Shown here one piece after another: positions 24,274 through 33,921 of a stretch of DNA of 38,163 nucleotides. Positions within the stretch are counted from its first letter, which is position 1, and each line of letters starts with the position of its first letter. Position numbers and translations under genes: made by a program. Under the pieces are notes generated by a model. The model was not told where the DNA came from, did no database searches, and saw nothing but the letters and a program-made list of their open reading frames with translations. The stretch lies in IMG/VR virus record IMGVR_UViG_3300045988_182321, positions 1-38,163 of that record. One strand, written 5' to 3'. Source of the DNA: a virus.

Positions 24274-27200
24274 ATGGCAGATTGGATAATCAAAGATACA
24301 ACGCTCCGAAGAATAGCGGATAAGGTACGAGGTCTTAACGATTCGGGCGCAAAAATGCTTGTTAAAAACATAGCAGATAATATACCCGAAAAGCAGGATA
24401 AGAACGTTTCTATAACCGAGAACGGCACGCAAACCATAAGACCTGATAACGGCAAGATTTTAGGCGACGTTATTATAGAAACCAATGTCGAGGGCGGCAA
24501 TAAACCCGAACAGGCAAAGACGATAAACGTCACGGCAAACGGCACGCAAACTGTCAAGCCTGATACGGGGAAAACATTATCGCAAGTAACTGTAATAACC
24601 AATGTCGAGGGGAGCGAAATTGTTTTGCAAGAAAAAACGGTAAGCCCGTCGGTGGAACAACAGCAAGTCCGCGCAGACCCCGGATATACGGCTTTAAGCC
24701 AAGTTACCGTTGAGCCTGTATTAACGGAAGAAAAAACCGTTACGCCTGCCGCAACGGAGTTTTATGTTTTGCCGACTACGGGTAAATACCTTACTCGTGT
24801 TAAGGTAAATGCCGTACCGGCAGAAGAGAAAACTATTACCGCGAACGGAGAATATATACCGGGGGACGGGGTTTTTTTCTCAAAAGTGACTGTCAACGTG
24901 CCGAAAGCCGAAACGCAGGTTAAGACGGTAGATATTACCGAGAACAATAAGACGGTATATATTTTCCCCGATTCGGGCAAAACATTAAGCCACGTTGTTG
25001 CAAACGTAAAAGTACCGGGTACGGATTTTGGGCAAGTCACGGCGGAAGCGGCAGATGTACGGCAAGGCAAGGTGTTTTTTGATAAAACCGGGTCAAAAAC
25101 ATATGGAGCTATGCCGACATACAACGGCGAGTTTTTTGCAGGGCTATACCCCCCGACGGTTTCCGTAGCGAGCAACACGCTTATGTGGTCGGCGGTTGAG
25201 GGCGCGGAGGGTTACAGGATATATAAGCAAGTATCTTCTTCCGAATGGGAGATGATAGCCGAACAAAGCGCAACAGAATACAACTTGCTTAATATGGCTG
25301 TCGGAAATTATACATTGTATGTAACAGCATATGCGGATATTCTTGAAAGCCCGAACAGCAATATCGTACAATGGGTAAAAGCTTCTTTGAAATACACATT
25401 AAGCAATATAAGCGTAAAAGACGCGCCCACGTACTTTACAACAAACACGCCTGCAACGATAACGTTTGAAAGGGCGTTCGGCTATGTTTTGCCGACAAGC
25501 GTAACGGTAGATACGGCGCAACAGAACTCTTATACAAACGGAGTACTTGTCATATCTCAACCGACGAGCGCAGAAGTCACGATAACGGCAAGCGGCGTAA
25601 AAGATACGAGCGCGACGATAGAGGCGGGCAGTTATCAGTTTGCGGCGAAAATTACCGCTATAAAAGAAACTCTCGAAGAAACGGTGAACTTCACCTATGC
25701 TTCTGCTGGCACAACGAATACTTATACGGCAATAGTCGCACAACAAAACGGGGCGATTGTATTTAAGAACGGCGATACAAACGAGCAAGTGTATAACGGC
25801 ACGACTTGGAATACAACTGCTCGGACTATCACAGTAACATCGACGGCGCATGTAAGTGCTGATTTCTTAGAATGGTTTAACAATGCCATGCAGAAAAAGC
25901 TTTCCGCGCCAGTTATACAAATTACTTCTGACGGGATTATATCGTGGAGCGCAGTGAGCAATGCTACTTCTTACGATATTCGTGACGGGGCGACTGTAAT
26001 TGCGACAACGACATATACAAACTTTGATATCAACCCGTATGGCAAAACAATGGGTGCCGGTGAACACAATATTACAGTCGTAGCAAAGGCTGATTACTTC
26101 TCCGACAGCGTACCGAGCAATACTGTTGTTTATACAGTATACAGTTTAACCACACCTGCAAACGTACAAATTCAAGCGCAAGGTTCAGACGAAGTTTTGT
26201 CTTGGGATTACACGGATAGTAACGCTACGGGAGCAGACATTTATGAAGAAACCACACAAGGCGTTTACACAAAGTTGGGTAGCGTAACAAGGGACGACAG
26301 TTCTCCGCAGTATGCAATTTCCTCAACGGAAAGTCTAAGTATAGGGTCACATAATTATGTCGTAAAAAGCACCAATTCTGTTGGAAAATATGCGGACAGC
26401 GCGTATAGTTCCCCGGCGACAGTCGGAATATACAAGCTTGCGTGGAACACTATCGGCATAGTAAAGCCGTCGAGGAATATTATCGCCAACAACGAAACTT
26501 ATACAACCACGATAGTTGCCGATAGCGGCTCGGAACTGCCCGAAACGATAGACGTGCAAGGTGCTTCGCACACGTGGAACGCTACGAGCGGACTGCTCCA
26601 AATATCCAATGTAACGGCTACATCGTATCAAACGGGCGTTACTGTAATTATTAACGCAGTCGCAAATGCTAAGATTGAGGCAGGCACATATTATTGGATA
26701 ACCGACCCGACGTTATCCTCAACTTATATAGAAGCGAATTTCACGTTCAAGAGCGGTGGCACGACATACACAAAGCTTTCTTCGGGTAACAGTGATTTTA
26801 TCAAGTACAACAATACTACCGTGTATTCGATGTCAGGCGGCGCGACTTGGGAGCCTGAAACCGCAAGAATTATTACAATATCTTCCGACCAATATATACC
26901 GCAGACGGCGTACGACTTTTTCTTTGCGAATAGCTTGAAAAAGCAATTAAGCACGCCGACCGTTAATGCGTATAATTACGAGATAACGTGGAGCAAATCG
27001 ACGGGCGCGACGGAATACGAAATATACGTAGACGGAACAAAATTCGGAAGCGTATACGACATTCACGATTTTTTAGCCGCTACGAAAGCTGGCTTTAATT
27101 TTGATAATACAACGTTGACCTTCACTCGAATGGATTATAATTATAGCGCAAGTCCAAGCATTTCTGGCAAGAATTACAAATTTGTTTTAAGTAGCGGTGC

Positions 27201-31155: not shown

Positions 31156-31165
31156 TTTGGGTACT
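31156..31165 (+). repeat. Arm-type site TTTGGGTACT (P arm)
   Basis: Same 10-mer as in the triple repeat at 31365-31400. Followed by GAAAAATCAG (31181-31190), which recurs at 31406-31415. Confidence 0.6.
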
Positions 31166-31232
31166 GAAATGTTATTATCGGAAAAATCAGGAGTTTTTAG
31201 TAGATTTTAAGCGTTTTTCAGTACTTTTTGTT

Positions 31233-31279
31233 CCCTCTTAATCAGGGTGTCCAGGGTTCGAGCCCCTGATCGTCCACCA
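31233..31279 (+). other. attP core: 3' portion of a tRNA gene (T-arm, 3' acceptor strand, discriminator A, CCA)
   Basis: CAGGG-TTCGAGC-CCCTG T-arm at 31252-31268, then ATCGTCC-A-CCA to 31279. There is no complementary 5' acceptor strand or D-arm upstream, so this is a fragment. Confidence 0.7.
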
Positions 31280-31280
31280 A

Positions 31281-31316
31281 AATAAGTGGTTATGTAAACG
31301 ACTACTTATTTTTTTT
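31281..31316 (+). terminator. Rho-independent terminator after the tRNA fragment / membrane operon
   Basis: AATAAGTgGT-N10-ACtACTTATT followed by tttttt. Confidence 0.7.
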
Positions 31317-31317
31317 A

Positions 31318-31349
31318 GCCTGTTTTCTTATGTAAACGGGCTATTTTTT
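31318..31349 (+). terminator. Second hairpin with T-tract
   Basis: GCCTGTTT-N8-AAACGGGC, then tatttttta. Both hairpins contain TTATGTAAACG. Confidence 0.5.
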
Positions 31350-31364
31350 ATTTTAAAGGGAAAA

Positions 31365-31400
31365 CTTTGGGTACTACTTTGGGTACTACTTTGGGTACTA
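31365..31400 (+). repeat. Three perfect tandem copies of CTTTGGGTACTA (P' arm-type integrase sites)
   Basis: Read directly. Abuts the integrase stop codon. Confidence 0.85.
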
Positions 31401-31411
31401 ATTTAGAAAAA

Positions 31412-32650
31412 TCAGCCCTCAAAGCGTTTAAGTTTTACAAAATAATCAGTAAAAGGCGATTTTTCGCGTTTCATAAAATGCGTATAAACGTCTTTTGTCA
31501 TCGATAAAGTAGCGTGACCGAGCCATTTTTTGGTTAAAAGGTCGTCAATTTGTGTTAAATGGCACATTGTGGCAAAAGTATGGCGCGTAGAATGAACGGA
31601 AACGTCGGTAAAGCCTAATTTTACAAAAGTTCTGCCGAAAGCGAGTTTAACAGCGTTGTAGGTATAATTCTCCGAAACGCAGTAGTCGAGTTCTTCTCGT
31701 AAACTCTCGTCATAATTGATAAAACGTTGTGACGTGCGGTTTTTCGTGTCGTGTTCAATAATACCGTCGCGGTTCATCATCTTATTGACCCGTATTTCGT
31801 CATCACCTATATCGTCGGGCGTGAGAGCCAAAAATTCACTTATGCGCATACCCGTACAGCAAAGGACGGTAAAGAGCCGACTATACTTTTCGGGTAAAGC
31901 CGTAAGGATAGCCGTTTGTTCTTCCGCAGTAAAAGCGCGTTTATGCTCCGACTTAACTTTCGGGCGTTTCAAGAGTTCGCAAGGGTTTTTGCGTATTTTC
32001 TCCGAAATGACCGCTTGACGAAGAGCGGAATTAATAACGTCGAATACTTTGCGCCGTGAGTTTTCGCCGTTTATAGATATAAAGAATTGTTGCAGAATAT
32101 CGGGCGTAAGTTGTTCCATAGGCGTTGCGATTGTCTTTATCTTATTAAATGCGTCCATATAACCTCTTTTCGAGTTCGAGCGTAAGTACGGTTCTTTATA
32201 TGTTTCGTACCAATAATTAACCCATTCGATAAAAGACGAGCCTTTCTTTGTGACGCGTTCCGTTTTTTCCTTTTCTTTTAAAGGGATATTCTTTAATTTT
32301 TCAATAACCTCCTTTTGAGTTTTAGCCGTTACCGTGTGGCGTTGGAATCTACCCTCCCACCACGTGTAGCGGCTATTTTTGTTTTTCCGGGAACGTTTCC
32401 GAATAGACCCCGCCCCGAAAGGCAGATAAACAGACATTTTTTCCTCCGCCTGAATATCCGATAACAACCTGAAATTAACGTCAGGATAAGGGGACGGCTT
32501 TCCGCCCTCACTTACAATACGAAAAGGCGATTTGCGCGTAATCGGTTCATTTGCGAAATCGTCGTTTCCTATTATTTTGCCGCACAATAACGAGGCTTTT
32601 TGTAAAGCCTCCGCTAAAAGGTCGAGCAATCTCCTTGTATCATCTTCCAC
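31412..32650 (-). CDS. int: Tyrosine recombinase / phage integrase (412 aa from GTG; alternative ATG at 32437 gives 341 aa)
   Basis: HSTRHTFAT (H-x-x-R) and LGHATLSMTKDVYTH (catalytic Tyr) near the C-terminus. Arm-binding-like GSIRKRS...YTWWEGRF. Adjacent to attP. Confidence 0.9.
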   Translation of the reverse strand: MEDDTRRLLDLLAEALQKASLLCGKIIGNDDFANEPITRKSPFRIVSEGGKPSPYPDVNFRLLSDIQAEEKMSVYLPFGAGSIRKRSRKNKNSRYTWWEGRFQRHTVTAKTQKEVIEKLKNIPLKEKEKTERVTKKGSSFIEWVNYWYETYKEPYLRSNSKRGYMDAFNKIKTIATPMEQLTPDILQQFFISINGENSRRKVFDVINSALRQAVISEKIRKNPCELLKRPKVKSEHKRAFTAEEQTAILTALPEKYSRLFTVLCCTGMRISEFLALTPDDIGDDEIRVNKMMNRDGIIEHDTKNRTSQRFINYDESLREELDYCVSENYTYNAVKLAFGRTFVKLGFTDVSVHSTRHTFATMCHLTQIDDLLTKKWLGHATLSMTKDVYTHFMKREKSPFTDYFVKLKRFEG

Positions 32651-32674
32651 TCCATATACTCCTCCAAAAAATAT

Positions 32675-33025
32675 TTAACCTACATTGCTTTGGGAATTTT
32701 TGAGAAACGCTTCGGCATAGCCGAGAACTTTTCCTTGCTGTACTGCTGTCAGTTGCCTGAACAGAGCGAGCATTTCTATCTCTTGCGATGTTAAGTTACT
32801 TGATTGTGTACGAGTCGCTTTCGGAGCAGGCTCCGTGTAAAAATAATTCTCGGGCAAATCAAACGCTTCGGAAATTCTTGCAAGCGTGCGCCGAGAGGGG
32901 GCGGCTTTCCCTGTTTTCCAACTTTGTATAGAACCATTGGAAATTCCCACTTTAATCTCAAAGTTTCGAGCGTTAAGCCCTTTTTTCTCCATTAACTCAT
33001 AAATTTTATTCAAAATAATATCCAT
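32675..33025 (-). CDS. CI-like repressor, XRE-family HTH, no S24 peptidase domain (116 aa)
   Basis: KKGLNARNFEIKVGISNGSIQSWKTGKAAPS HTH. Divergent from the Cro-like gene and upstream of int. Confidence 0.8.
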   Translation of the reverse strand: MDIILNKIYELMEKKGLNARNFEIKVGISNGSIQSWKTGKAAPSRRTLARISEAFDLPENYFYTEPAPKATRTQSSNLTSQEIEMLALFRQLTAVQQGKVLGYAEAFLKNSQSNVG

Positions 33026-33038
33026 AATTTTTCTCCAT

Positions 33039-33102
33039 AGAAAAAATTCTTAAAAAAGTTCGGAAAAATTCCTAAAATCGCTTGACATTTAGGAAATTTT
33101 CC
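33039..33102. promoter_or_regulatory. Three operator-like palindromes (AGAAAAAATTCT, GGAAAAATTCC, GGAAATTTTCC)
   Basis: Located at 33039-33050, 33062-33072 and 33092-33102. The third lies in the spacer of the rightward promoter. Confidence 0.55.
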
Positions 33103-33110
33103 TATATAAT
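33082..33110 (+). promoter_or_regulatory. Rightward consensus promoter TTGACA-17-TATAAT (PR-like)
   Basis: ttgaca tttaggaaattttccta tataat. About 390 nt upstream of the cro-like ATG. Confidence 0.75.
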
Positions 33111-33213
33111 ATAAGTGTAAACAAGGTAAAGCAACTGCGTTACGGTCAAATTTGAAATAAAACACCTATATCGTATGGCTCCGACATAAGTGTTTACCCA
33201 AATTTGTTTACCC

Positions 33214-33228
33214 TGACAATTGCACTGT
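33214..33228. repeat. Left copy of 15-bp inverted repeat (TGACAATTGCACTGT)
   Basis: Reverse complement of 33446-33460 matches at 14 of 15 positions. The mismatch would be a G-U pair in RNA. Confidence 0.9.
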
Positions 33229-33431
33229 GTTCGGCTCTCCACCTATTAACAGACAAGTAACCATCCTTGCTTCTATTGTTGCGATATTACTTTTGCGGTT
33301 TTGGTTCCGCTGAGCGCATTAAGCCAATAAGAACCGTGAGCAATCATTCCGACGGGTCACGGATACAGGGAGCAGCGCGCTTATCAAGGCTTTCATAAAA
33401 GAAGTCCTCCAAGCGCAAGTTGCGCAAATTT

Positions 33432-33461
33432 ATTATATCGCAAAAACAGTGCAGTTGTCAA
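33432..33461 (-). promoter_or_regulatory. Leftward consensus promoter TTGACA-18-TATAAT facing the PR-like promoter
   Basis: Minus strand reads ttgaca actgcactgtttttgcga tataat. The -35 lies inside the right copy of the inverted repeat. Confidence 0.7.
33446..33460. repeat. Right copy of 15-bp inverted repeat (ACAGTGCAGTTGTCA)
   Basis: See 33214-33228. The copies are separated by 217 bp. Confidence 0.9.
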
Positions 33462-33509
33462 CTAATTTAACACATTGTTAACAAGATTTACAAAAAGGAG
33501 GTGGTAAAA

Positions 33510-33701
33510 ATGGACGCAAAGAGATTGGAAAAGTTAAGAGTTAAGAAAGGACTGTCGCAAGTAGAGTTTGCGGAACGAATCGGAGTAAGCCGTCAAGCCG
33601 TATGGAAAATGGAAAGCGGCTTTATGAATCCGTCGGTCGAAACGCTTAAACTCATAGCGAAACTTTTCAACGTCACGACCGATTATTTGCTCGGAATGTA
33701 A
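33510..33701 (+). CDS. Cro-like XRE-family HTH protein (63 aa)
   Basis: AAGGAGG SD at 33494-33500, ATG 33510. KKGLSQVEFAERIGVSRQAVWKMESG HTH. Confidence 0.8.
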   Translation: MDAKRLEKLRVKKGLSQVEFAERIGVSRQAVWKMESGFMNPSVETLKLIAKLFNVTTDYLLGM

Positions 33702-33732
33702 AACTTCAAAAAAGTCAATGGAGGATAGAATA

Positions 33733-33921
33733 ATGACTAACGAAGAATTTATCAAAAACTTAAAAACGGAAGAATTGGCGCGTGTGCTTAAATACGCAAC
33801 CGATTGTCGGCATTGTCCGATTCGCTCTTTCTGCAACAAAACCGATTGTGAAGATTGCGAAGAAACGTGGTTTCGTTGGCTGAAAGCAAAAAAGACGGCG
33901 GAGGACTTGAACAATGATTGA
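33733..33921 (+). CDS. Small Cys-rich protein (62 aa)
   Basis: GGAGGA SD then ATG 33733. CRHC...C...CEDC pattern. Confidence 0.6.
   Translation: MTNEEFIKNLKTEELARVLKYATDCRHCPIRSFCNKTDCEDCEETWFRWLKAKKTAEDLNND

Follow-up and report, generated by a model that had tools for sequence, protein, structure and literature searches.

The immunity region described here belongs to a viral DNA stretch of 38,163 nucleotides (IMG/VR record IMGVR_UViG_3300045988_182321), which in its entirety is referred to as the window. On the minus strand, a tyrosine integrase gene of 412 aa (31412..32650; PF00589) with an adjoining attP and a CI-like helix-turn-helix (HTH) repressor gene of 116 aa (32675..33025) are followed, across an intergenic region at 33026-33509, by a plus-strand Cro-like HTH gene of 63 aa (33510..33701; HTH_3, HTH_19 and HTH_31). 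Two promoters, each a 12/12 consensus match, face each other in this region across ~310 nt. The rightward promoter, P_R (33082..33110, plus strand), consists of TTGACA, 17 nt and TATAAT; it adjoins the start of the CI-like gene, lies ~390-400 nt upstream of cro and is conserved in relatives. The leftward promoter, P_FuFi (33432..33461, minus strand), consists of TTGACA (33461..33456), 18 nt and TATAAT (33437..33432). A sequence-only reading of this DNA had annotated the leftward promoter, cro, the CI-like repressor and the tyrosine recombinase in agreement with our results, but had overlooked both the rightward promoter at 33082-33110 and the RNA gene that lies between the two promoters. Beside the integrase, an attP-like region (31157-31400) has a tRNA 3'-end-like core at ~31240-31280, including the tRNA 3'-end-like stretch GGTTCGAGCCCCTGATCGTCCACCA at ~31255-31280, and four copies of (T)TTGGGTACT, at 31157 and 31366-31400, that are probably arm-type integrase sites.

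An Rfam scan returned a single family in the window, FuFi-1 (RF02986), as a minus-strand RNA gene at 33159..33334 whose match is full-length (model positions 1-175) and scores 79.8 bits (gathering score 59.6; E = 1.6e-15). In the main text of the paper that described it, FuFi-1 is an orphan RNA motif of unknown function, highly conserved in Fusobacteria and Firmicutes, that ends in a terminator; self-cleavage was not detected, and its discoverers considered a sophisticated function likely (Weinberg et al. 2017, PMC5737381). Like the class as a whole, the window copy has, besides the full-length match, the invariant core (GGGTAAACAAATTTGGG, 33197..33213, minus strand), a 3' terminator and the synteny of other members. 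Both sequence features of membership are present, namely the invariant core GGGUAAACAAAUUUGG and the hairpin loop GAACCAAAAC. The terminator hairpin (33155..33195, minus strand) comprises a 12-13-bp stem and an 8-nt loop followed by UUUUAUUU; it is evident from the Rfam alignment and the fold and was absent from the output of a simple terminator scan. Compared with other members the window copy is divergent (79.8 bits versus 76-141 elsewhere), and its hairpin before the core is enlarged. P_FuFi occupies the same position as the promoter at other FuFi-1 loci, and we infer from it a FuFi-1 transcription start at ~33425. The CI-like gene lies downstream of FuFi-1 on the same strand. A search between the FuFi-1 terminator and cI for a separate cI promoter found just one weak candidate, TTGCTT-17-TATTAT; expression of cI here probably depends on read-through from P_FuFi, judging from the sequence. 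With the order P_R, FuFi-1 unit, cro, rightward transcripts would have to cross the whole FuFi-1 unit antisense.

Promoter, leader, RNA and terminator form a cassette at 33139..33475. Its leader contains a micro-ORF (33319..33396, minus strand; GGAGGA, 7 nt, ATG; MKALISALLPVSVTRRNDCSRFLLA) that includes MKALISALLPVSV and has a conserved counterpart in other FuFi-1 loci. Several smaller elements accompany the cassette. The palindrome CAAATTTG lies within the FuFi-1 core (33199-33206), and further full or partial copies or complements of it occur just past the terminator (33146-33154) and at or near the promoter or start (33423-33431), as they do in several other lineages (L002, L013 and L061); these copies could pair with the core or could constitute a DNA site. 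A perfect 6+3+6 palindrome at the cassette's right edge (33467-33481), TTAACAATGTGTTAA in the minus-strand reading, is situated after the FuFi-1 -35 and before the cro ribosome-binding site in plus-strand order and could be a binding site. On the rightward strand, a weak terminator-like site at 33413-33425, the complement of the first leader hairpin, reads GCGCAAGTTGCGC and then AAATTTATTA.

Superimposed on the promoter and RNA gene is an inverted repeat (IR), reported by the sequence-only reading and confirmed here: the 15-mers TGACAATTGCACTGT (33214-33228) and ACAGTGCAGTTGTCA (33446-33460) are reverse-complementary at 14/15 positions, with 217 nt between them, and the match extends to 16/18 over 33214-33231 and 33443-33460. 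As also noted in that reading, the right arm overlaps the -35 of the leftward promoter and the TATAAT lies within the bracketed segment. Read on the minus strand, the right arm holds 5/6 of the -35 bases and the first 10 nt of the P_FuFi spacer; because it is upstream of the transcription start deduced above, it is outside the FuFi-1 RNA. The left arm, by contrast, is part of the RNA gene. On the minus strand it takes in, according to the Rfam alignment, the 3' strands of a hairpin and of the multiloop-closing stem, as well as the conserved UGCA junction; it is directly 5' of the FuFi-1 core GGGUAAAC and ends where the invariant core GGGUAAACAAAUUUGGG starts. The IR thus brackets the 5' two-thirds of the FuFi-1 gene together with the -10 of its promoter. 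Across the whole window, IRs of at least 14/15 with a gap of 20-400 nt numbered 2, versus 0.35 expected from first-order Markov sequences, and about one-third of random 38-kb windows contain at least one IR of such quality. The other (24847-24861 and 24953-24967; GGAGAATATATACCG and CGGTATATATTTTCC) is inside an ORF of 1048 aa. In a local test restricted to the RNA gene and the 190 nt upstream of it, none of 30 shuffles attained 14/15 (the best reached 13), and we estimate from base composition a local chance of p ~0.004 for such a match. Taken alone the IR is suggestive and not decisive; its significance derives from comparative data.

The closest phages by CI protein (83-98% identity) are without 33139-33475. 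In its place they have 34 bp that include a leftward TTGACA-17-TATAAT of their own, facing the same rightward promoter. The cassette therefore took the place of 34 bp, which is not a clean insertion, and in the window it substitutes for the conserved leftward promoter. Ten contigs encoding a 100% identical Cro lack the cassette and both arms and hold either the short region or other cargo genes that this leftward promoter drives; in loci L148-L157 the cargo consists of unrelated genes of 129, 145 or 154 aa or of extra HTH genes. This alternation of short region and cargo marks the cI-cro space as an insertion hotspot of varying content. In three independent assemblies that encode the exact CI protein, the 484-bp intergenic region was 100% identical to that of the window and had the same orientation. 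Diverged copies of the window's cassette type gave no match in genome scans or in the viral scan, the metagenome scan for such copies returned another FuFi-1 type only, and a distant blastn of 32600-33800 against GenBank phages found no match.

The sequence-only reading had put forward an inversion toggle, in which 33229-33445 would be turned around by a site-specific recombinase so that its TATAAT faces cro. The geometry proposed for it is correct: inversion would yield a rightward CTGACA-18-TATAAT, and GTTTACCCTGACAATTGCACTGTTTTTGCGATATAAT is the inverted left junction expected after the flip. IR-flanked invertible promoter segments of similar size exist in Firmicutes, such as the cwpV and flgB switches of Clostridioides difficile, and with the fimS, hin and cwpV switches the locus shares a short IR around a few hundred base pairs with promoter elements. 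It differs from them in that one orientation was found, no dedicated invertase was found and inversion would destroy a conserved RNA gene. Because the bracketed segment is the 5' two-thirds of that gene, the flip would split FuFi-1, parting positions 1 to ~105 from the core and terminator, and a 12/12 rightward promoter is already present. The three assemblies have a single orientation, scans of viral and genome sequences with an interior-only pattern returned no inverted copy of the bracketed segment, and in the L030 group of FuFi-1 loci, whose cassettes are bracketed by IRs of 16-18 bp, 0/19 distinct cassette sequences (~31 contigs) were inverted relative to their flanks. The only recombinase found is the PF00589 integrase, which has its own tRNA-type attP with arm-type repeats (ACTTTGGGTACT) unrelated to the IR arms; ten other mid-size ORFs examined had no recombinase domain, although an enzyme of the host could still act on the IR. 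Together with the absence of the arms from the closest relatives and a mismatch pattern, described below, that points to selection on RNA, these results make inversion a most improbable explanation.

A second possibility raised in that reading was that the arms are paired operators for repressor looping. Operators were located elsewhere. Two palindromes, TAGGAAATTTTCCTA in the P_R spacer (33090-33104) and TCGGAAAAATTCCTA beside P_R (33060-33074), have the form TAGGAA-N3-TTCCTA and co-vary with the CI allele among relatives, which identifies them as CI operators. Across the window and relatives L025-L029 and L151-L155, the operator types by CI allele are TAGGAAATTTTCCTA, TAGCCAAAATCTCTA, TAGTTAAAAAAACTA and TTAACTAAA, and the P_R hexamers and initial transcribed sequence are fixed while the operators vary. 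On sequence grounds the P_R palindromes look like immunity-specific operators. In the looping scenario, CI, Cro or a host factor would bind both arms, loop 232 bp and regulate P_FuFi. That distance, centre to centre, is ~22 helical turns by our arithmetic, and in another FuFi-1 lineage, L120, the repeat on the promoter side clearly belongs to a set of at least five TAGAA-N4-TTCTA operators. At least five such palindromes occupy the L120 stretch from the FuFi-1 terminator to the next gene (~150-330 nt downstream of the GAACCAAAAC loop), and one more overlaps the FuFi-1 promoter, which appears from these sites to be under repressor control. The arms in the window, however, bear no resemblance to the CI operators of this phage family, have poor internal dyad symmetry (4/6 positions in either arm) and are both missing from the ten contigs with identical Cro. 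Moreover, arm sequences that are unrelated across lineages, with strand-specific G.U mismatches, fit base pairing and not a shared protein. We consider looping improbable.

We surveyed FuFi-1 in viral and metagenome contigs and recovered 103 loci in 30 sequence clusters; 9/9 loci tested were confirmed with Rfam. The immediate downstream same-strand genes in independent lineages encode a CI-type repressor and a tyrosine integrase, in some cases with an ImmA-type peptidase as well. This synteny, with the same-strand CI-type repressor, with or without ImmA, and integrase downstream, was present in six other lineages as well as the window. Upstream genes, which are cro-like or early lytic, lie on the opposite strand and start 0-35 nt from the FuFi-1 promoter or promoter-side arm; their own promoter must therefore lie beyond the cassette. 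Candidates are a minus-strand TTGAAA-17-TATACT in L089, with its start abutting the downstream arm, and a minus-strand TTGACT-17-TATCAT in L061. The arrangement of genes and promoters suggests that FuFi-1 units, that of the window included, generally lie antisense within the path of the lytic transcript.

Most FuFi-1 loci (L003, L030, L122, L132 and others) share a conserved 5' extension of ~250 nt, located between ~270 and 30 nt ahead of the Rfam FuFi-1 start, with the promoter, a hairpin, a micro-ORF and further conserved blocks; it is outside the Rfam FuFi-1 model and gave no match to another Rfam family. The leader in the window, in contrast, is only ~90 nt long, and it shares the hairpin, GGAGGA and CUGCUCCCU with the longer leaders. 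The micro-ORF is conserved in L003, L030, L144, L083, L013, L002 and others, ~190-230 nt upstream of the GAACCAAAAC loop, with the pattern GGAG, 8-9 nt, an ATG, GTG or TTG start and M-T-K-L-L-x-L-P-(A/V/C)-(P/S). Synonymous changes among its Leu codons (TTG/CTG) and Pro codons (CCT/CCC/CCG/CCA) suggest a translated leader peptide, possibly part of an attenuation-type leader for the repressor operon.

Long IRs of 16-29 bp, with sequences unrelated between lineages, were found in at least five further lineages: the L030 group (16-18 bp), L013/L017 (24/24), L159 (27/27), L164 (27/29) and L089 (24/25). The promoter-side arm overlaps the FuFi-1 -35 or immediately precedes it, and its partner is 0 to ~100 nt past the terminator, with the exception that the promoter-side arm of L164 is ~25 nt further upstream than in the other four lineages. 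In 1.6 Mb of fetched loci, 28/60 perfect IRs (at least 14 bp, gap 200-700 bp) bracketed a FuFi-1 gene. The best inverted 15-mer match between upstream and downstream sequence reached at least 13 in 12/22 lineages versus 45/462 mismatched lineage pairs; direct repeats, used as a control, reached this level in 6/22 lineages. About three-quarters of FuFi-1 lineages are without a strong IR. RNA duplex energies between promoter and downstream sequences, compared across lineages, gave no discrimination, the long sequences forming loop-ridden duplexes.

At 7/7 mismatches within the IRs, the window's included, the strand that is antisense to FuFi-1 has a G.U pair and the sense strand has A.C; three of these seven events come from one supergroup. 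All are transitions; 0/7 run in the opposite direction and 0/7 are transversions. Such strand specificity is as predicted if selection acts on an RNA helix in the lytic-direction transcript, and protein-binding sites, transposon ends or recombination sites would not be expected to give it. Compensatory changes in homologues, which the sequence-only reading had proposed to look for, were evident in other FuFi-1 lineages, both in this wobble pattern and in L030-group covariation; the window's own lineage is represented by three identical copies. When the L030 group alignment was read as the antisense strand, 97.6% of cells paired, and three pairs had changes in both partners, with G-C, G.U and A-U all represented at one of them. 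Its pairing and covariation scores were reached by 0/500 shuffles. A MITE-like mobile element with terminal repeats was also considered and rejected on the basis of unrelated arm sequences, no target duplications and strand-specific wobbles. Likewise rejected was a second promoter on the downstream arm, because the arm lacks a downstream -10 in the window, L013 and L030.

A rival account is coincidence, namely that the FuFi-1 gene and its promoter are the real features and that the 14/15 complementarity of the arms is without a function of its own in this phage. The frequency of comparable IRs in random 38-kb windows is in keeping with coincidence, as are the invariance of the three assemblies of the window lineage and the scarcity of strong IRs among FuFi-1 lineages; a weak 13/15 IR in L099 is not retained in its relative L035. 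Furthermore, the downstream arm in the window is placed differently from that of lineages with long bracketing IRs. Against these points, the match exceeded all shuffles in the local test, the promoter-side arm is exactly where 4/5 other lineages have theirs, over or just upstream of the -35, and the one mismatch between the window's arms is a G.U whose strand agrees with that of the six others. We regard coincidence as a serious but less probable account.

The reading we lean toward, with modest confidence and largely by analogy with the other lineages, is that the two arms act as RNA and not as DNA, pairing with each other in the rightward lytic transcript to give a functional helix of 15 bp, one of them G.U. 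A helix of this kind was the remaining alternative in the sequence-only reading and proved the best fit, given analogous IRs of unrelated sequence elsewhere whose mismatches are all G.U antisense to FuFi-1. In a predicted transcript from P_R to cro, the left arm (33214..33228, plus strand) supplies the 5' strand and the right arm (33446..33460, plus strand) the 3' strand, 36 nt upstream of the cro Shine-Dalgarno. The plus-strand duplex energy of the arms is -22.8 kcal/mol; in a plus-strand fold of 33117-33515, all 15 helix pairs had probabilities of 0.81-1.0, and the helix was present in both MFE and centroid structures. We infer that the helix forms in vivo. The 3' arm, over the FuFi-1 -35, is in the same place as in most other IR lineages. 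The 5' arm is inside the RNA gene, just past the antisense core, whereas elsewhere the downstream arm is past the terminator; consequently the helix encloses 217 nt and not the whole cassette. Because the window lineage is without sequence variation, we assign the helix by analogy and by the direction of its one wobble.

According to this RNA-helix model, the lytic transcript would start at P_R, cross the inserted FuFi-1 cassette antisense and reach cro, as suggested by the consensus matches and by a sequence scan that found no strong plus-strand terminator before cro. The cassette's own consensus promoter would fire leftward to cI and int, head-on against P_R. The predicted helix would isolate 217 nt of antisense FuFi-1 sequence in a cro-leader domain of its own; the weak terminator-like site at 33413-33425 is located in this domain. 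Our best guess at its role is a clamp or an RNase III-type processing site. Acting as either, it would insulate the antisense FuFi-1 portion from the remainder of the cro leader or detach it, and would thereby set the response of the lytic mRNA to the countertranscript. The helix might alternatively serve as protection from the countertranscript.

More broadly, we tentatively propose that FuFi-1 cassettes are self-contained countertranscript modules of temperate Firmicute phages that sit beside cro, within the lytic leader or early operon but in antisense orientation, and are transcribed toward cI, immA and int. A sequence-independent clamp helix of the lytic mRNA would be a recurrent working part of these modules and may gate cro expression or RNase III processing according to the presence of FuFi-1 RNA. 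Should this proposal, which we advance as a possibility and not as the probable outcome, be true, it would provide a first biological role and a testable mechanism for an orphan RNA class. FuFi-1 has been without function or defined context since 2017, and the main text of PMC5737381 mentions neither an IR from promoter to downstream region nor antisense placement in a lytic leader. Here it emerges as a constant part of the immunity regions of phages, where it precedes the repressor-integrase module in the same orientation and lies antisense to lytic transcription. The recurrent IR in FuFi-1 loci, in turn, behaves in sequence comparisons as an RNA helix of the lytic strand. The question of FuFi-1 function can now be approached via the lysis-lysogeny decision of gut and oral Firmicute phages. 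The locus also calls for caution with PhaseFinder-type inverton finders, in that IRs flanking a promoter can be RNA structures of the opposite-strand transcript.

Elements of the proposed module have counterparts in known systems. Neisseria Correia elements and the lambda sib site are co-transcribed IR elements that form RNase III-sensitive hairpins in mRNA. FuFi-1 IR units resemble them in that an inserted unit lies between the arms, promoter hexamers are part of the arms, and the arms pair only when a transcript spans the insert. They differ in that their arms are unrelated between lineages and no target-site duplication was seen; thus, FuFi-1 IR units are not one transposable family. Face-to-face promoter switches with countertranscripts include pR/pL of coliphage 186, Pe/Pc of P2, prgQ/prgX with Anti-Q RNA of pCF10, lambda OOP and P22 sar. 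With these switches, the FuFi-1 locus shares two strong opposed promoters across a region that decides between two programmes, and a small structured RNA, from the leftward unit, with full complementarity to the rightward operon's leader. What sets the window apart is an overlap of ~310 nt, a putative countertranscript belonging to a widespread, highly structured RNA class, and a rightward leader with a predicted long-range helix around its antisense part.
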